64,000 bases of DNA, from NCBI GenBank assembly GCA_021683455.1, contig GCA_021683455.1_3051.1; one strand, written 5' to 3'. Every line of letters starts with the position of its first letter. Position 1 is the first letter of the stretch. Of the stretch, positions 3,162-62,561 are shown piece by piece. The translations under genes were made by a program, and so were the position numbers. The stretch is from a phage. Under the pieces are notes generated by a model. It was not told the DNA's origin and made no database searches. It worked only from the letters and a program-made list of their open reading frames with translations.

Positions 3162-3347
3162 TTATTCACCTTTAGAAATTTTATCCATAACAATAGCGAT
3201 TAAACCAATTAAAAATGCTACTACAAGTGAAAAAACATTTTCTGCTGTAGTCAATAATCCGCATATAAATCCAACAAACATTGAAAAACTAAAAGCGGAA
3301 GCAGAAATTGCAATAGCAACATTTCGAATTAATTCACAACGTTTCAT
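3162..3347 (-). CDS. Small hydrophobic membrane protein (61 aa)
   Basis: Two predicted hydrophobic helices; SD GAGGAGAA upstream; early promoter immediately upstream. Confidence 0.55.
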   Translation of the reverse strand: MKRCELIRNVAIAISASAFSFSMFVGFICGLLTTAENVFSLVVAFLIGLIAIVMDKISKGE

Positions 3348-3369
3348 TTTATTCTCCTCAGTAGTTGAT

Positions 3370-22817: not shown

Positions 22818-22848
22818 CATGGGGCCGCAAGGCCCTAAAGGATTTTAA

Positions 22849-29740: not shown

Positions 29741-30385
29741 TTGATTATGGGGCTTCGGCCCCTATTCTCGAGGAAACAAGTGATTATTTCTAAGTTTGTT
29801 ACAATAAAACCAAGAAATCATTCAAAAATGTGGTCGACAATTCTGGGATATAAAGTATCATATCATGATACAGTATCTGTTCCAATAGAATTAATGCCAA
29901 AGAATAGTAATAAAATAGTTGACGCTAAATGTGATTTGTGTGGTACTAAATTTAGTAGAAGCATTCAACTTTTAAATAGAACACCCACACATGCGTGTAG
30001 AAAATGTAGCATTAAACAAGTTGCTATTAAAAATTCGGAAGTTCAATCTGGAATAAGCAGACCATGGCAAAGAGGTGATAAACATCCTCGATGGACTGGC
30101 AAAAGAAAAGAGTTTGCATTATATGCTAGTAGAGTTCATTCTATAACTAAGTCAGCTAAAATAAGAAAAATCTGGTCAAAATGGCCAAATGCTGATAAAA
30201 TAGGAGTGTGTGGCGTAGAAGGTGCTTACCAACTCGATCATAAAGTATCTATCAAATATGGATTTGATAATTTAATTCCGCCGGAAATTATAGCAAGCGT
30301 AAAAAATTTAGAAATAATCACTTGGGAATCTAACCGAGAAAAGTCAAAAAGAAATAGCGTAGATCTTTGGGATTTACTAGAATGA
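29741..30385 (+). mobile_element. Free-standing HNH homing endonuclease inserted between genes 18 and 19
   Basis: N-terminal Cys-rich motif (CDLCGTKF..CRKC); C-terminal HNH-like motif (QLDHKVSIKYGF..NLEIITWESNREK); track ORF start spans the terminator hairpin, so the real start is probably near 29780 (GTG with GAGG SD) or 29828 (ATG). Confidence 0.7.
29749..29762 (+). terminator. Stable UUCG-tetraloop hairpin after gene 18 (attenuator or RNA stability element)
   Basis: GGGGC-TTCG-GCCCC perfect stem-loop just after the gene 18 stop; weak T-run. Confidence 0.45.
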
Positions 30386-36365: not shown

Positions 36366-36380
36366 TCTTTGACGATTTAA

Positions 36381-36399
36381 GGGACCTTCGGGTCCCTTT
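36381..36399 (+). terminator. Intrinsic terminator after gene 23
   Basis: gggacc-TTCG-ggtccc hairpin followed by a T-run. Confidence 0.6.
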
Positions 36400-43630: not shown

Positions 43631-44319
43631 ATTATAAATTAATATATGATAATTTAATTAATAGAGCCCAGAATCGGGCTCGCCTTAATGGATACACTGA
43701 AACACATCATATAATTCCTAGATGTATGGGTGGTACAAATGATAAGTGTAATTTAGTAGAACTAACGGCTGAAGAACATTTTATAGCCCATAAACTTTTA
43801 GCTAAAATTCATCCAAACCATTACGGTATAATTAAAGCTGTTATATGTATGGGGATGAATTCAAATACTCATGAAAGACATGTTAATAAATCTTACGCAT
43901 GGGAACGTCGTAAAATGGCAGAACTTCAATCCGGCGAAGGTAATCCATTTTACGGAAAACACCATACGGAAGAACATAAACAATATATGTCAAAACTCAT
44001 GAAAAGTCGTCCAATTACATGGGGAAATAAAATTAGTAAAACTAAAAGAATGAACCCAACGAAATGGACTGAAGAAGCTAAAAGATTACATTCAATCAAT
44101 CAATCGGGTAAAAATAACGGCATGTATGGAAGGAAACATTCTGCTAAATCTATTCAGAAAATTAAAGATAACATGCCAGATAATTCAGGAGCTAATAACC
44201 CAGCTGCTAAACCTATAGAAGTAAATGGTGTTAAATATAAATGTATGAAAGATGCTTCTAAAGCTACTGGATTATCAATGTACAAACTAAGAATACTTAG
44301 AAAAACAGTTAATTTATAA
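43627..44319 (+). mobile_element. Free-standing HNH homing endonuclease with NUMOD-like repeats, inserted after uvsW (230 aa)
   Basis: HNH motif ETHHIIPRCMGGTNDKCNLVELTAEEH; repeats NPFYGKHHTEEHK and NGMYGRKHSAKS; TTG start with AAGAGG SD overlapping the uvsW stop. Confidence 0.75.
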
Positions 44320-44332
44320 GGGCTTCGGCCCT

Positions 44333-44578
44333 TTGGAGAAAAAGATGTTACTAGAATTTAAACAATTTCTTTATGAAGCTTCTATTGATGAATTTATGGG
44401 TAAAATTGCCTCTTGTCAAACATTAGAAGGTTTAGAAGAACTTGAAGCTTATTATAAGAAAAGAGTCAAAGAAACTGAATTAAAAGATACTGATGACATC
44501 TCTGTGAGAGATGCTTTGGCAGGAAAAAGAGCTGAATTAGAAGATTCAGACGATGATGAAGTAGAAGAAAGCTTTTAA
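44333..44578 (+). CDS. uvsW.1: UvsW.1-like small acidic protein (81 aa)
   Basis: Small acidic ORF downstream of uvsW; position matches T4 uvsW.1. Confidence 0.55.
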   Translation: MEKKMLLEFKQFLYEASIDEFMGKIASCQTLEGLEELEAYYKKRVKETELKDTDDISVRDALAGKRAELEDSDDDEVEESF

Positions 44579-52946: not shown

Positions 52947-52951
52947 CAATG

Positions 52952-52978
52952 GGGACCGAAAGGTCCCCATATTTTTAT
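52952..52978. terminator. Bidirectional terminator between gene 54 and the alt operon
   Basis: ggggacc-GAAA-ggtcccc hairpin with flanking T-run. Confidence 0.6.
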
Positions 52979-59447: not shown

Positions 59448-60289
59448 TAGAATGCTCCTTGTAAAATATTATCACCACTAGTAGGTCTATTATACAAATA
59501 CTCTATGCCACCAGGTTTAATATAGTTCCATGTATGAAATGGATGCACATGATATGGATGTGTATAATATGGATGGTATGGATTTAATCCAGGAGTTCTC
59601 CAGGTAGTATTCCAACGAAAAGAATCGTTTTTAATCATCTTTTCAATTACATCTTTTATAGCTTTTTCACTATCAAAACTTTCTTTATTTTCATTCGATG
59701 GAAAAAGCTTATTCTCTACATCATTCCATGTATAAACTCGCTGTGCAGTTTTTGGAATACTGTCACGCTCCCCTCGAGCCATCCAATAAACAGGAACATT
59801 TAATATTTCACTCGCGTGATCGCAGTGGTGAGCGAGATCGTCAATATAACAAATTACGTTATATTTCTCTTTTGCCTTTTTGAACAACTCTTCTTTTGAA
59901 GAATCATGACCACACATCAATACTTCTGAGAAGGCACCAGGAAAAAGAGCATTCAAATTAAATTGACGATTCAGCAGAGCGTCAATAGAATCACCCAATG
60001 CTGTAACAGCTACAAAATTATAATCTTCTTTTAATTTGTTAATTACACACAGGGCATCTTTATATGGAGACAAGTAACGAATAAAATCTGAACGATTGTA
60101 TTTTTCAATTAACTTGACGCCAAGTTCTTCATCGCAATTAAAGAGCTTACCAGGAGAAATAAATTTTTCGTCCTGAATCATTTTTAAAATATGTTCTAAT
60201 GGAAGATTATATTTTTGGGCAAAATAAGGAAGACCTGATTGCCAGCTTAAACATACACCATCAATATCAGTCAAAATAGTAGGCTTCAT
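59447..60289 (-). CDS. HAD-superfamily phosphatase/nucleotidase-like protein with His/Pro/Tyr-rich C-terminus (280 aa)
   Basis: HAD motif I ILTDIDGV, motif II-like AVTALG, motif IV CYIDD; C-terminal HPYHPYYTHPYHVHPFH. Confidence 0.65.
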   Translation of the reverse strand: MKPTILTDIDGVCLSWQSGLPYFAQKYNLPLEHILKMIQDEKFISPGKLFNCDEELGVKLIEKYNRSDFIRYLSPYKDALCVINKLKEDYNFVAVTALGDSIDALLNRQFNLNALFPGAFSEVLMCGHDSSKEELFKKAKEKYNVICYIDDLAHHCDHASEILNVPVYWMARGERDSIPKTAQRVYTWNDVENKLFPSNENKESFDSEKAIKDVIEKMIKNDSFRWNTTWRTPGLNPYHPYYTHPYHVHPFHTWNYIKPGGIEYLYNRPTSGDNILQGAF

Positions 60290-60750
60290 AGAGAGTCTCT
60301 TAATAGGTTTAACACATCAATAAATTCAGCTTCGGTTAGTATTGTATCATCTTTTGTTAGACCGCTGGCCATGCTGTGCTTCAAAACTTTTCCTTTCGAG
60401 GCTTGTAATGCATCACGAAACCCTTTATTTTGGATCGCGGCTTCAAAATATGCATTTGTGTATAATTCTTTCCACGCTGGAGAGTATCTTGAAAACGGAA
60501 CTCCGAGCCAGAAGAGGGTCCCACGGTCCTGAGCTCTAGCATAAGACCTTCCAGCTTGTTGGGCGGCAAGCCCGGATAACCCAAATACACGACGTTGCTG
60601 TTCAACATTTTTCACCTTACATCCTTGGAGAAATCCTTCAAGACCTCCGAATTGAATACCATCCATGACAAAAGGCCATTGGGCGAAATTACTTAATGCA
60701 CATGATGGCCATTTAAAATTGCTTCTAATCTCTAACTCAGACATTTTCAA
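60286..60750 (-). CDS. NADAR (YbiA/DUF1768-like) domain protein (154 aa)
   Basis: LSNFAQWP..DG segment resembles the conserved FSNFA.WP..DG core of E. coli YbiA as I recall it; 4-nt overlap with the HAD gene. Confidence 0.55.
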   Translation of the reverse strand: MKMSELEIRSNFKWPSCALSNFAQWPFVMDGIQFGGLEGFLQGCKVKNVEQQRRVFGLSGLAAQQAGRSYARAQDRGTLFWLGVPFSRYSPAWKELYTNAYFEAAIQNKGFRDALQASKGKVLKHSMASGLTKDDTILTEAEFIDVLNLLRDSL

Positions 60751-60943
60751 TACTTATAATTTCAACATCAGCCCAATGACCATAGCAAGGAAGACGAAAC
60801 TCAACTGGCCAGTCACTACCCTTTTCTAGTATAATAGACTTGACTTGTGGTTCTTCATGCTCGTCAGTATATGGATTTTTATCTGTTACTTTATATGTGA
60901 CCTTAATGTACTGAATTCCAAAAATCTTATTAATTATATTCAT
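60737..60943 (-). CDS. Hypothetical protein (68 aa)
   Basis: Overlapping, coupled small ORF in the early cluster. Confidence 0.5.
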   Translation of the reverse strand: MNIINKIFGIQYIKVTYKVTDKNPYTDEHEEPQVKSIILEKGSDWPVEFRLPCYGHWADVEIISIENV

Positions 60944-61137
60944 ACTAATTCCTTTAATCCGTAAATAGGAGATAATTCATCACCCATACGAAGGTCTTCA
61001 TTTCCATCTACCCAGGAAACAATATAAGCCTCTTTTATTTGAATACCACTCCATTTAAATGGAGGTAGAACCTTAGAAATTAATCCAGGTATACCAACTC
61101 CCTTTAATTCAACAGTTTGACCTAAAAAGAATTTCAT
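60940..61137 (-). CDS. Hypothetical protein (65 aa)
   Basis: Overlapping, coupled small ORF in the early cluster. Confidence 0.5.
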   Translation of the reverse strand: MKFFLGQTVELKGVGIPGLISKVLPPFKWSGIQIKEAYIVSWVDGNEDLRMGDELSPIYGLKELV

Positions 61138-61423
61138 TAGAACCTCATCTGAAAACCATGTGATTTAACATTACCGCCGCCAATATCAGAAATGTTAATT
61201 TCACGCGCAATTGAAGGGTCAATGTCAATTTCACCATTAAGTTTAGCGATAGCTAAAGTATCACGCCCATTTACTGTACGGAATTCTAAAGGACAAACCA
61301 CATCAACATAATTTTTAATCGATTCACTAGTAGGTTGCAAATGAGCAGGAAGGTCTTTAGGCGCCTTAGAGAAAACCACTTCACAAAAATTTTTGCGGGT
61401 GTCAAAATAAGTAGTCATAAACA
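61137..61423 (-). CDS. Hypothetical protein (~95 aa; track ORF extends to 61475 from a TTG)
   Basis: Probable ATG start near 61423 with GAGGA SD; hairpin aggggc-TGAA-gcccct at 61441..61456 in the intercistronic gap. Confidence 0.55.
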
Positions 61424-61464
61424 TAATATTTTCCTCAGTAAGGGGCTGAAGCCCCTCATTTATT

Positions 61465-61830
61465 TTAAATATCAAATTCGTTAAGAACTACATCAAAGAT
61501 TGCTTCAAGATGCTCAGGTTTAGCTCTATTACTCAGAATATGACGAATCCAAGTTTTAACCAGAAGCTTACGATTAACGCCATTCCAGCAAGGATGAGTC
61601 CCTAAATCACGTTGACGAAAATCATCATCTAAAGCGATTTTAAAATTTGAACCTTCCATTGTGATTGAAACCGTGATGCCATTTTCAAATCGCATATAAA
61701 CGTAGTTAGGAGTCATATACTGTTCAATTTCGCATACTGAACCATTTTGATGTTTCCAAAGGCAAATAGTATCAATAGAACCTGCAATACCATTAGAAAC
61801 ATATTTACGTTCAAAGTTGATGTAGTTCAT
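61465..61830 (-). CDS. Hypothetical protein (121 aa)
   Basis: ORF in the early cluster; no motif recognised. Confidence 0.6.
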   Translation of the reverse strand: MNYINFERKYVSNGIAGSIDTICLWKHQNGSVCEIEQYMTPNYVYMRFENGITVSITMEGSNFKIALDDDFRQRDLGTHPCWNGVNRKLLVKTWIRHILSNRAKPEHLEAIFDVVLNEFDI

Positions 61831-61898
61831 TTTTATTCTCCGAGATGTTTAATTGCGGTACAGGTATATAATATCATATCCTGTACCAAAGTAAACAA

Positions 61899-62231
61899 TT
61901 ATTTTACTACTTTCCAGTACTTCATGTCAAGTTTACCAACTTTTTTCATCTTCTCAATTAAGCGTTCGGCACGTTGGCGAGCTGTAACATAATACCATTC
62001 ACCTAATTCATTTTGTTCAATTTTTCCAACGATTACTGTATTCAATTCATAAATCCAACCAGTAAAGAAATTATGAACTTGAATTGTAAAGGTGAAATCT
62101 GTTCCCATACCTTCTGTTGTTTCTACTTCAATAATATCACCTTCAACTGCCATTAAGAACCACATAGTTTCATCATATTTACCATTGAAGCATTTAGTTT
62201 TAACTGCAGCGTTCAGATTAATCGTTTTCAT
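61899..62231 (-). CDS. Hypothetical protein (110 aa)
   Basis: ORF with early promoter copy 3 immediately upstream. Confidence 0.6.
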   Translation of the reverse strand: MKTINLNAAVKTKCFNGKYDETMWFLMAVEGDIIEVETTEGMGTDFTFTIQVHNFFTGWIYELNTVIVGKIEQNELGEWYYVTARQRAERLIEKMKKVGKLDMKYWKVVK

Positions 62232-62244
62232 TTTATTCTCCTTT

Positions 62245-62342: not shown

Positions 62343-62561
62343 TTATGCTTTCTGCTTACCAAAACGAGAAGCATCATCTCGAAGAACCGCACGTGCTCGG
62401 CGCATGATCTTCTCAACAGTTTGATTGATACGAGAGTTCGACCCACGCTTGTAGCCAGCGCGTTTAGAATCACCAACTTTCTTTTCAACTGCTTTCTTTG
62501 CTTTAGCTTGTTTTGCCATTATAAATTCTCTTTTAAATGAAAATGCAGGACTTATTGGCAT
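62343..62561 (-). CDS. Small highly basic protein (72 aa from track; 58 aa from MAKQAKAKK)
   Basis: Lys/Arg-rich ORF followed by a strong terminator. Confidence 0.5.
   Translation of the reverse strand: MPISPAFSFKREFIMAKQAKAKKAVEKKVGDSKRAGYKRGSNSRINQTVEKIMRRARAVLRDDASRFGKQKA

Follow-up and report, generated by a model that had tools for sequence, protein, structure and literature searches.

Transcription and RNA processing in the T4 region considered here are said to be the subject of a dedicated study, by Truncaite and co-workers in 2006, and extra-stable C(UUCG)G and GNRA tetraloop hairpins reportedly occur in T4 intercistronic regions, as described by Tuerk and co-workers in 1988. T4 omics places each of the five T4 genes 30.4 to 30.8 (NP_049818-NP_049822) in the early class, for RNA as well as for protein (PMC9697503 supplements). 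In a CRISPRi-ART screen of T4, 30.4, 30.5, 30.7 and 30.8 are scored Not Fit and 30.6 Semi-Fit; knockdown thus carries no fitness cost for the first four, and a marginal one for 30.6.

The 30.5 protein is alone among the five in having a reported activity. It co-purifies with the host polyphosphate kinase (Ppk), which is a report of binding and not of an effect on Ppk activity, and it activates the defence protein bNACHT11; in the absence of bNACHT11, deletion of 30.5 leaves the phage titre unaffected (bioRxiv 10.1101/2024.12.17.629029). T2 gp6 and T2 gp57 likewise bind host kinases, CoaA and GlpK respectively, and trigger bNACHT11 (bioRxiv 10.1101/2024.12.17.629029). These three are small, early, non-essential proteins without a known fold family. 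Their sequences are unrelated, and of the five T4 proteins only 30.5 has so far been placed in the set.

The RegB/S1 target of T4 early mRNAs is an 11-nt sequence, GGAGRAYARAA, with the optimum GGAGAAUAAAA, situated in a single-stranded translation initiation region (TIR) (Durand et al., 2006, PMC1702504). GGAA sites are very poorly cut by RegB (PMC1702504). A further paper (PMC9409239, citing Truncaite et al., 2006) uses the T4 30.7 Shine-Dalgarno (SD) sequence as a known substrate for RegB cleavage. Promoter/stem-loop cassettes (PeSLs; Arbiol et al., 2010, PMC2839356; Comeau et al., 2014, PMC4122927) have in the T4/PST group the promoter consensus TTTACW N17 TAYWAT and a stem-loop of the form AGNA-loop-TCNT, and shuffling of genes has been proposed to occur at such junctions (PMC2839356, PMC4122927).

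The window analysed here is a stretch of phage DNA of 64,000 nucleotides (64 kb). The preliminary description had listed five ORFs of 68, 65, about 95, 121 and 110 aa close to its end and proposed that they be compared with T4 30.4 to 30.9. All five are present:

60737..60943, minus strand: 30.4 ortholog, 68 aa, acidic (pI 4.95)
60940..61137, minus strand: 30.5 ortholog, 65 aa
61137..61424, minus strand: 30.6 ortholog, 95 aa, with its ATG at 61424
61465..61830, minus strand: 30.7 ortholog, 121 aa
61899..62231, minus strand: 30.8 ortholog, 110 aa

The comparison identifies them by sequence as orthologs of T4 30.4, 30.5, 30.6, 30.7 and 30.8, genes that are already catalogued. The 30.4 protein is 92.6% identical to NP_049818 and matches phrog_2042 (E=3e-34); 30.5 is identical at 65/65 residues (100%) to NP_049819, the protein assayed in T4, and matches phrog_1690; 30.6 is 96.8% identical to NP_049820 and matches phrog_2153 (E=1e-50); 30.7 is 98.3% identical to NP_049821, and 30.8 is 97.3% identical to NP_049822. 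The last two also match their Pfam families over the full length. Residues 1-120 of 30.7 cover positions 1-118 of 118 in PF06919, the T4 gp30.7 family (E=1.8e-52, 176.5 bits, curated cut-off 27), and residues 1-110 of 30.8 cover positions 1-124 of 124 in PF06019, the T4 gp30.8 family (E=6e-58, 194.5 bits, curated cut-off 25).

The genes have the order, strand and lengths of their T4 counterparts, with the same overlaps at the junctions and the same signals between genes, and as in T4 NC_000866 they lie between 30.3 (a Pfam PF08010 match) and 30.9/rIII/31. The locus differs from T4 by point differences only. In 30.4 these are clustered, the five differing residues all falling within residues 35-44, and synonymous divergence is uneven, varying from gene to gene in a mosaic fashion (pS 0.02-0.28). 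The label of early genes, which had been given to these ORFs from the DNA alone, is borne out for all five by the T4 omics classes (PMC9697503). Since the five genes are near-identical to long-annotated T4 early genes, the finding is an ordinary one, and as a discovery it carries little weight. What keeps it of interest is the lack of an assigned function for four early proteins that are conserved and expressed in the best-studied lytic phage, together with the recent link of their neighbour 30.5 to a host kinase and an NLR-type immune sensor.

A layout of overlapping or abutting stop and start codons had been described for the whole string. This is correct for the run 30.6-30.5-30.4-30.3, to which overlapping genes are limited, and not for the two upstream junctions. 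The 30.6 stop and 30.5 start overlap by 1 nt (TAATG), the 30.5 stop and 30.4 start by 4 nt (ATGA), and the 30.4 stop and 30.3 start by 8 nt (ATGTCTGA). The gap between 30.8 and 30.7 is 68 nt and that between 30.7 and 30.6 is 40 nt, and both hold regulatory signals. In the mechanical ORF list 30.6 is extended to a TTG start, giving 112 aa; this version runs through the hairpin discussed below, and such a start is unlikely. The ATG of the 95-residue version has its own SD:

61436-61429, minus strand: SD of 30.6, GAGGAAAA

The signals upstream of 30.7 and 30.8 are as follows:

61831..61841, minus strand: translation initiation region of 30.7, an exact optimal RegB/S1 site, GGAGAAUAAAA
61857..61895, minus strand: PeSL-type cassette before 30.7, with promoter-like boxes within a stem-loop
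61895-61890 and 61873-61868, minus strand: promoter-like site of 30.7, TTTACT, 16-nt spacer, TATTAT
61887-61880 and 61864-61857, minus strand: stem-loop of the 30.7 cassette, GGTACAGG / CCTGTACC
62231..62241, minus strand: translation initiation region of 30.8, a second exact RegB/S1-type site, GGAGAAUAAAA
62259..62339, minus strand: terminator and putative promoter cassette (PeSL type) in the 30.9/30.8 gap
62339-62309 (hairpin 62339-62318), minus strand: 30.9/30.8 terminator, GAGGACUCC-UUCG-GGAGUCCUU plus a U run
62288-62283 and 62264-62259, minus strand: promoter-like site of 30.8, TTTACA, 18-nt spacer, TAGTAT

The 30.9/30.8 and 30.8/30.7 gaps resemble PeSLs in holding a promoter-like site of the TTTACW...TAYWAT type and a stem-loop that precedes the -10 box or overlaps it, in ending at the 3' side with an SD and ATG, and in their placement in a region of varying gene content. 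A stable stem-loop lies upstream of the promoter boxes of 30.8 and overlaps those of 30.7, where the hairpin 61887-61857 overlaps the -10 box (fold -20 kcal/mol, z=-4.1 to -4.4) and is conserved across lineages. The stems of the 30.9/30.8 terminator covary across lineages. In other lineages the flanked ORFs are inserted or replaced, both between 30.8 and 30.7 and after 30.7, as expected of the PeSL location. These candidate cassettes depart from the PeSL consensus in their spacers, which are 18 and 16 nt and not 17. But for that spacer, the 30.9/30.8 cassette agrees with the T4/PST consensus in its stem-loop (AGNA-loop-TCNT) and in its promoter boxes. The promoter-like sites are consensus matches, of which the window has no excess (12, against 10.6 in shuffles); the boxes TTTACA-18-TAGTAT and TTTACT-16-TATTAT are conserved across lineages. 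They may well serve as promoters in this phage.

Both TIRs carry the exact 11-nt RegB/S1 optimum, a pattern with three occurrences in the 64-kb window where 0.11 would be expected. In transcripts from the proximal promoters the two sites are predicted to be unstructured, and RegB probably acts on both messages. The 30.6 TIR, GAGGAAAA, is unlike these targets in that it contains GGAA, and because such sites are very poorly cut, the coupled 30.6-30.3 block should escape RegB.

The other gap contains the GC hairpin that had been picked out by eye, exactly as described:

61440..61457, minus strand: GC-rich tetraloop hairpin, mRNA GAGGGGC-UUCA-GCCCCUU

Its core, AGGGGC-TGAA-GCCCCT at 61441-61456, lies inside the 40-nt 30.7/30.6 gap, 7 nt past the 30.7 stop codon and 3 nt ahead of the 30.6 SD, and its local fold has a free energy of -18.1 kcal/mol (z=-3.5). 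It is found in 21/21 related loci, in each case between the 30.7 stop and the SD of the next gene, and the spacing to the SD is fixed at 3-8 nt across lineages. The stems in the 21 loci are AGGGGC, GGAGGC, GGGAGC or AGGGCC, and the loops UUCG, UUCA, UUUG or GAAA. Compensatory changes are seen in 5/6 stem pairs and 94% of cells are paired, a result reached by 0/500 shuffles. On this pattern of substitution, the hairpin is a conserved RNA-type element under structural selection, and the role in processing or translation suggested for it in the preliminary description, which remains putative, fits with that selection on the stem. It belongs to the common class of T4 tetraloop hairpins, of which the window has 16 where about two are expected, and it has their build, a GC stem closed by four loop bases, which read UUCG, UUCA, UUUG or GAAA depending on the lineage. 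The loop is UUCA both here and in T4, whereas most relatives have the canonical UUCG. An Rfam scan gave sub-threshold chance matches and nothing else. Having no promoter, the hairpin is not a PeSL.

The hairpin might instead terminate or attenuate transcription, either of sense transcripts leaving 30.7 or of antisense late-strand transcripts. A terminator scan does flag the plus strand as terminator-like (AGGGGCTGAAGCCCCT then CATTTATTTT), and similar PeSL stem-loops lower read-through in reporter assays (PMC4122927, PMC2839356), so that by analogy some attenuation may occur. On the mRNA strand, however, the stem continues with UUACUGAGGAAAA, no lineage has more than 2-3 U there, and the hairpin is not a canonical terminator. 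The antisense version was dropped because conservation does not extend to the T-rich tract of the other strand, which in locus L019, for example, reads AAATTT. The conserved feature is the fixed place 3-8 nt upstream of the SD, and we regard termination or attenuation as unlikely. Most likely, the hairpin would act as a structural divider within the mRNA, blocking exonucleolytic decay and insulating the 30.6 ribosome-binding site from upstream structure.

The genes themselves have been compared across lineages. With dN/dS values of 0.05-0.25 (measured against one diverged relative), the five ORFs are by this measure real genes under purifying selection, beyond chance. A homolog of each is encoded in 721-1042 phage genomes. 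Word-indexed searches identified 6-20 close relatives per protein, and an exhaustive search for 30.8 gave 22 clusters; P0059 and P0061 were discarded as spurious 30.8 homologs, being giant proteins with multiple short matches and unrelated domains. The 30.5, 30.7 and 30.8 genes are kept in every lineage sampled, and between several T4-like genera their products share 40-55% identity (dN/dS 0.05-0.14). T4-like phages have 30.6 in the position that follows the hairpin. Other genera have unrelated ORFans there (148-204 aa), and carry additional ORFs between 30.8 and 30.7 as well. The ORFs present in other lineages in place of these genes, or in addition to them, have no Pfam match.

Such changes in gene content at the junctions, together with the mosaic synonymous divergence from T4, would be expected if the small ORFs were for the most part selfish passengers of mobile regulatory cassettes, maintained through recombination and not through any benefit to the phage. 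The repeated promoter/stem-loop and hairpin/SD junctions would then be the recombination sites, and shuffling of exactly this kind has been proposed in the PeSL literature (PMC2839356, PMC4122927). We consider this very improbable, in view of the strong purifying selection on all five genes and the retention of three of them throughout the lineages sampled; in addition, knockdown of 30.6 is marginally costly and 30.5 binds a specific host enzyme.

The five proteins are small (7-14 kDa) and hydrophilic (GRAVY -0.34 to +0.19). No motif had been recognised in them by eye, and the searches agree: Pfam, PHROGs, NCBIfam and PADLOC scans of all five return only self-named families or families of unknown function, with no enzyme family, and PDB searches using the five sequences and profiles of 30.6, 30.7 and 30.8 give nothing at E below 0.08. 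Structure prediction, which had been suggested as a way forward along with remote homology, was carried out with AF2 for 30.7 and 30.8. The 30.7 model (pLDDT 73) has seven strands and two helices, and Foldseek finds no fold match for it in the PDB (best E 0.2). A possible role for 30.7 in metal binding was abandoned, since diverged homologs have other residues in place of its cysteines. For 30.8 the model is a confident one (pLDDT 93.9, pTM 0.82), and again Foldseek finds no match in the PDB (best E=0.2); a BFVD search yields proteins of its own family and further uncharacterised phage proteins, and nothing else. Weak matches of 30.8 to SSB/OB-fold proteins, with TM about 0.2 and rmsd above 10 Å, were dismissed as noise. 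A confident predicted structure without a known fold relative makes 30.8 of interest in its own right.

The preliminary description had considered the string typical of host takeover or anti-defence genes. The refuting case that it set out holds by half: each of the five ORFs has its ortholog in T4, and knockdown shows four of them to be dispensable, but 30.5 acts on the host. From its identity with the T4 protein, the 30.5 of this phage is predicted to bind Ppk and to activate bNACHT11. The takeover half of the suggestion is supported for 30.5, and is unproven for the other four. As to the anti-defence half, no such activity is known or detectable by homology in any of the five: PADLOC, NCBIfam, Pfam and PDB searches, and Foldseek for 30.7 and 30.8, reveal no similarity to anti-defence or defence families.

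It could still be proposed that some of the five proteins, or all, are dedicated inhibitors of bacterial immune systems that laboratory E. coli lacks; this would account for their dispensability in that host. They are early, small and non-essential, they sit in a variable region adjoining 30.3 (the putative NADAR gene of the preliminary description, a Pfam PF08010 match), 30.4 has a hypervariable surface-like patch, and 30.5 is sensed by a defence protein, as many counter-defence or takeover proteins are. Against this, family and PDB searches, and fold searches for 30.7 and 30.8, show no similarity to any characterised protein; the one partner on record is an enzyme of metabolism, Ppk, and the effect of 30.5 on immunity is to trigger it rather than to block it. 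Moreover, the identity of 40-55% across genera and low dN/dS (0.05-0.14) of 30.7, 30.8 and 30.5 are more in keeping with host targets that are conserved than with immune targets that change fast. A dedicated anti-defence role therefore seems doubtful.

The interpretation that we favour, and think reasonably probable, is that the locus comprises two RegB-limited PeSL early cassettes, a hairpin divider and a coupled 30.6-30.3 run, with products that bind host proteins. The region is the 30.4-30.8 part of the variable block of early genes that separates the DNA ligase gene (30) from rIII/31 in T4-like phages, and would form three expression units: the 30.8 cassette, the 30.7 cassette, and the coupled run 30.6-30.5-30.4-30.3. 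In the first two, 30.8 and 30.7 would each have their own host sigma-70-type promoter wrapped in a stem-loop, and a ribosome-binding site doubling as a RegB/S1 site. This combination would give a burst of synthesis in the first minutes, which RegB would then end. After 30.7 would come the stable tetraloop hairpin and then the RegB-poor, translationally coupled 30.6-30.5-30.4-30.3.

The five products would be small soluble cytoplasmic proteins without an enzyme motif, each binding an individual host protein stoichiometrically early in infection, as 30.5 does with polyphosphate kinase. By this analogy, stoichiometric binding of host proteins is the most likely mode of action; for 30.4, 30.6, 30.7 and 30.8 we infer it by extrapolation from one neighbour and from small T4 early proteins generally. 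Their functions would be adaptive, yet dispensable on laboratory hosts.

More tentatively, 30.4, 30.6, 30.7 and 30.8 might each bind a different host enzyme through folds outside the PDB, with the hairpin joint serving as a site of gene swapping. The confident 30.8 model matches nothing solved. If this possibility were true, the phage would have an early battery of metabolic or immune-modulating binders that are also able to trigger NLR-like sensors. The four proteins are tractable targets for pull-down or AlphaFold-multimer screens. Under the same tentative reading, the joint after 30.7, consisting of the tetraloop hairpin plus GAGGAAA, would be a promoter-less counterpart of a PeSL at which unrelated genes are swapped.

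The preliminary description had proposed a comparison with T4, and the five small early ORFs pair one-to-one with T4 genes 30.4 to 30.8. Their coordinates and sizes, as described there, match the ORF list on the minus strand.

Genes 30.4 to 30.8, with protein identity to T4 and the number of phage records holding a homolog (tblastn against 50,697 phage records)
60737-60943, minus strand: 30.4, 68 aa, 92.6% identity, 721 records
60940-61137, minus strand: 30.5, 65 aa, 100% identity, 853 records
61137-61424, minus strand: 30.6, 95 aa from ATG, 96.8% identity, 860 records
61465-61830, minus strand: 30.7, 121 aa, 98.3% identity, 995 records
61899-62231, minus strand: 30.8, 110 aa, 97.3% identity, 1042 records

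Matches to the 1495-bp stretch occur in 716 phage records, nearly all of them Escherichia/Shigella T4-like phages, and the best full-length ones have 97.5% identity. The genes are syntenic with the T4 genome, lying between 30.3 on one side and 30.9, rIII and 31 on the other. For T4, a transcriptome and proteome time course (PMC9697503, supplementary files 4 and 6) puts all five in its 'early-RNA_early-Protein' class. Some start sites differ between gene calls. The mechanical ORF list starts 30.6 at a TTG (112 aa), and some public calls in relatives (P0033, P0034, P0039) extend it upstream as MEASASFEEN... or MGRKPLEEN.... The extended calls read through a hairpin and the Shine-Dalgarno sequence (61425-61475, minus), and are probably mis-calls. 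The neighbouring 30.3 (60286-60750, minus) is listed with a TTG start two codons upstream of the T4-annotated ATG; its sole Pfam match is PF08010 (Phage_30_3) and a PDB sequence search gave nothing at E < 0.01, so that the NADAR label of the preliminary description was not borne out.

The region is organised as three expression units, not as a single string. The overlapping layout described previously holds for 30.6/30.5 (TAATG), 30.5/30.4 (ATGA) and 30.4/30.3 (ATGTCTGA), and these stop/start overlaps link 30.6, 30.5, 30.4 and 30.3 into the third unit. It does not hold for 30.8 and 30.7, the two largest ORFs, which are set off by gaps of 68 nt and 40 nt with signals of their own.

Signals around 30.8 and 30.7
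62339-62309, minus strand: terminator of textbook form, GAGGACUCC-UUCG-GGAGUCCUU plus a U run, 3' of the 30.9 stop
62288-62259, minus strand: promoter-like site of 30.8, TTTACA, 18-nt spacer, TAGTAT, between the terminator and 30.8
61895-61868, minus strand: promoter-like site of 30.7, TTTACT, 16-nt spacer, TATTAT, between 30.8 and 30.7
61887-61857, minus strand: stem-loop of 30.7, GGTACAGG/CCTGTACC, in which the promoter-like site is embedded

The 30.7 stem-loop folds at about -20 kcal/mol (z=-4.1 to -4.4). The features in the 30.9/30.8 and 30.8/30.7 gaps are kept in all lineages sampled, and the terminator stems covary. Judged by sequence, both cassettes resemble the published architecture of the promoter-early stem-loop (PeSL) cassettes of T4-type phages. 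In the T4/PST group these carry an early promoter, TTTACW N17 TAYWAT, with a stem-loop that precedes the promoter boxes, lies between them or overlaps them, and a Shine-Dalgarno sequence and ATG at the 3' end; they sit in hyperplastic regions, and a role in modular gene shuffling has been proposed (PMC4122927; PMC2839356). The spacers here, of 18 nt (30.8) and 16 nt (30.7), differ from the N17 consensus.

The ribosome-binding sites of 30.7 and 30.8 are both exactly GGAGAAUAAAA, the 11-nt optimum target of the T4 endoribonuclease RegB acting with ribosomal protein S1 (Durand et al., PMC1702504). The optimal pattern occurs three times in the 64-kb window, where 0.11 copies are expected; the third copy, GGAGAATAAAA at 3347-3357 (minus), probably marks another early-gene ribosome-binding site. 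T4 30.7 mRNA serves as a standard RegB substrate in PMC9409239, which cites Truncaite et al. 2006 for this. The ribosome-binding site of 30.6 is GAGGAAAA and contains GGAA, which RegB cuts very poorly according to Durand et al. (PMC1702504). Expression of 30.8 and 30.7 would be a brief pulse that RegB ends by inactivating them, and the coupled 30.6-30.3 run would be spared.

A further control is predicted at the 30.8 Shine-Dalgarno sequence, ACAAAGGAG (62246-62238, minus), which in read-through transcripts may pair with UUCCUUUGU in the promoter spacer (62275-62267, minus). Transcripts from the proximal promoter do not contain this 5' arm and are predicted to be unstructured at the site. In other lineages an equivalent pairing is predicted from complementary sequences that differ from these, such as CUCCGUUGUAUG/CAUACAACGGAG before 30.7; among the related loci compared, it is predicted at L007 and L018 for 30.8 and at L015-L022 for 30.7. 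The predicted arrangement resembles the known control of the T4 gene e type. The window's own 30.8 hairpin has z=-1.6, which is not significant by itself.

The GC hairpin reported earlier, AGGGGC-TGAA-GCCCCT, is present at 61441-61456, within the 40 nt that separate the 121-aa ORF from the 95-aa ORF. On the mRNA strand it reads GAGGGGC-UUCA-GCCCCUU, beginning 7 nt past the 30.7 stop codon and ending 3 nt ahead of the 30.6 Shine-Dalgarno sequence. Each of the 21 related loci (IMG/VR) has a GC-rich tetraloop hairpin in the equivalent position, with a GAGGAAA Shine-Dalgarno sequence 3-8 nt downstream of it (the copy in L020 has one mismatched stem pair), and even genera in which a gene other than 30.6 comes next keep it. 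The stems differ by lineage (AGGGGC, GGAGGC, GGGAGC, AGGGCC, AGGGC), as do the loops (UUCG in the majority, also UUCA, UUUG and GAAA). An ungapped alignment of the 14 distinct versions has 94% of its cells paired, and in five of the six pairs both sides have changed; none of 500 shuffles does as well, and shifting the register leaves 0 or 1 such pair. Selection therefore acts on the structure of the hairpin.

The lack of a U run makes it less likely that this hairpin is a terminator or attenuator: the mRNA strand has no more than 2-3 U after the stem, and the opposite strand's T-rich tract is not conserved. The hairpin is not a canonical terminator. It is also not unusual in its setting. A first-order Markov model predicts about 2 perfect GC-rich tetraloop hairpins in the window, and 16 are present (for example 22822-22835, 29749-29762, 36379-36398, 44318-44333 and 52949-52970), their loops mostly TTCG, CGAA or GAAA. 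Some are followed by T runs, as terminators are, and several stand directly before a Shine-Dalgarno sequence, some with a start codon as well. The best reading is that the 30.7/30.6 hairpin would act in the mRNA as a block to exonucleolytic decay and as an insulator of the ribosome-binding site that follows.

Judged by their names, the phages with homologs are almost all phages of Enterobacterales, with some of Aeromonas. Among the sampled loci, distant genera keep 30.8, 30.7 and 30.5 at 36-56% identity and have no 30.6, 30.4 or 30.3. In L006 and L015-L022 the slot 3' of the hairpin is occupied by unrelated ORFans of 148-204 aa in place of 30.6, with no Pfam match, and L015-L022 have extra ORFs between 30.8 and 30.7, each preceded by a tetraloop hairpin and GAGGAAA. 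The hairpin/Shine-Dalgarno joint may therefore be a junction for gene swapping. Distant 30.6 homologs occur elsewhere in Klebsiella/Pantoea phages, two of the three preceded by a tetraloop hairpin. Synonymous divergence from T4 (pS) is 0.02 for 30.5, 0.05 for 30.8 and 0.21-0.28 for 30.4, 30.6 and 30.7, and this mosaic between adjacent genes suggests recent recombination in gene-sized blocks.

At 7-14 kDa the five proteins are small; they are also hydrophilic (GRAVY -0.34 to +0.19) and have a pI of 5-6.6. Pfam matches are limited to the self-named families PF06919 (30.7) and PF06019 (30.8), and all five fall in unknown-function families of PHROGs. Remote homology, the check recommended at the outset, gave no credible match in sequence and profile searches of the PDB, nor any in NCBIfam and PADLOC scans. 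An AlphaFold2 model of 30.7, made from an alignment of 13 sequences, is moderately confident (pLDDT 73, pTM 0.60), with seven strands and then two helices, and Foldseek against the PDB gives no match (best E=0.2, TM < 0.3). An exhaustive HMMER search with 30.8 against 1.84 billion cluster representatives returned only 22 clusters, essentially all single-domain proteins of 105-142 aa. The model from 18 of these is confident (pLDDT 93.9, pTM 0.82), and predicts a beta-rich body, a long hairpin at residues 24-54 and a C-terminal helix. No PDB entry matches it significantly (best E=0.2, TM about 0.2), and its BFVD matches are confined to its own family and further uncharacterised proteins of phages. 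The genes, PeSL cassettes, RegB site on 30.7 and hairpin class have all been annotated or described already; this predicted fold, confident and unmatched among solved structures, is modestly new. Fragments of the 30.7 and 30.8 families are joined to the 30.3 family or an SH3_3 domain in P0011, P0023 and P0024. The source contigs of these proteins are short, and the combinations are probably artefacts of frameshift or recombination.

Function data for T4 30.5 come from a 2024-2026 preprint of the Whiteley and Corbett laboratories (10.1101/2024.12.17.629029). Co-expression of T4 30.5 with the NLR-related defence protein bNACHT11 strongly reduces colony formation, and T4 evades bNACHT11 once 30.5 and two other activators are deleted; in the absence of bNACHT11 the deletions left titre and plaque morphology unchanged. 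Host polyphosphate kinase co-purifies with tagged T4 30.5, as confirmed by reciprocal co-immunoprecipitation. In a genome-wide CRISPRi-ART knockdown (PMC11879866, supplementary files 1 and 15), T4 30.4, 30.5, 30.7 and 30.8 are 'Not Fit' and 30.6 is 'Semi-Fit' (0.72, p=0.067), a score it shares with four other T4 genes whose function is purely unknown.

The idea that these ORFs are largely selfish cassette cargo is weakened by the 30.5 results and by strong purifying selection: dN/dS against the diverged relative L009 is 0.25 (30.4), 0.14 (30.5), 0.06 (30.6), 0.05 (30.7) and 0.08 (30.8), values which are rough because dS is near saturation in four of the five genes. Selection of this kind also marks the five ORFs as real genes. 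It is possible, though less likely, that some or all of the five proteins are dedicated anti-defence inhibitors. The best-supported account is that the five would be small, dispensable proteins made in an early burst, whose mode of action is to bind host proteins, their expression probably shaped by PeSL cassettes, RegB sites, the structural hairpin and translational coupling. Such binding has been demonstrated for T4 30.5, and for 30.4, 30.6, 30.7 and 30.8 we infer it.

It is worth adding that all five differences between 30.4 and its T4 counterpart lie at residues 35-44 (KSIILEKGSD against ESIILERDPN; 60812-60841, minus). This patch is part of the middle section, about residues 23-49, that varies most across other lineages; the C-terminal YGHWADVEIIS motif is nearly invariant. 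The flanking 30.9 ortholog (62343-62519, minus; 58 aa, no family annotation) is 100% identical to T4 and extremely basic, with a pI of 11.4 and Lys or Arg at 19 of its 58 residues, a composition which suggests that it may bind nucleic acid or the ribosome.
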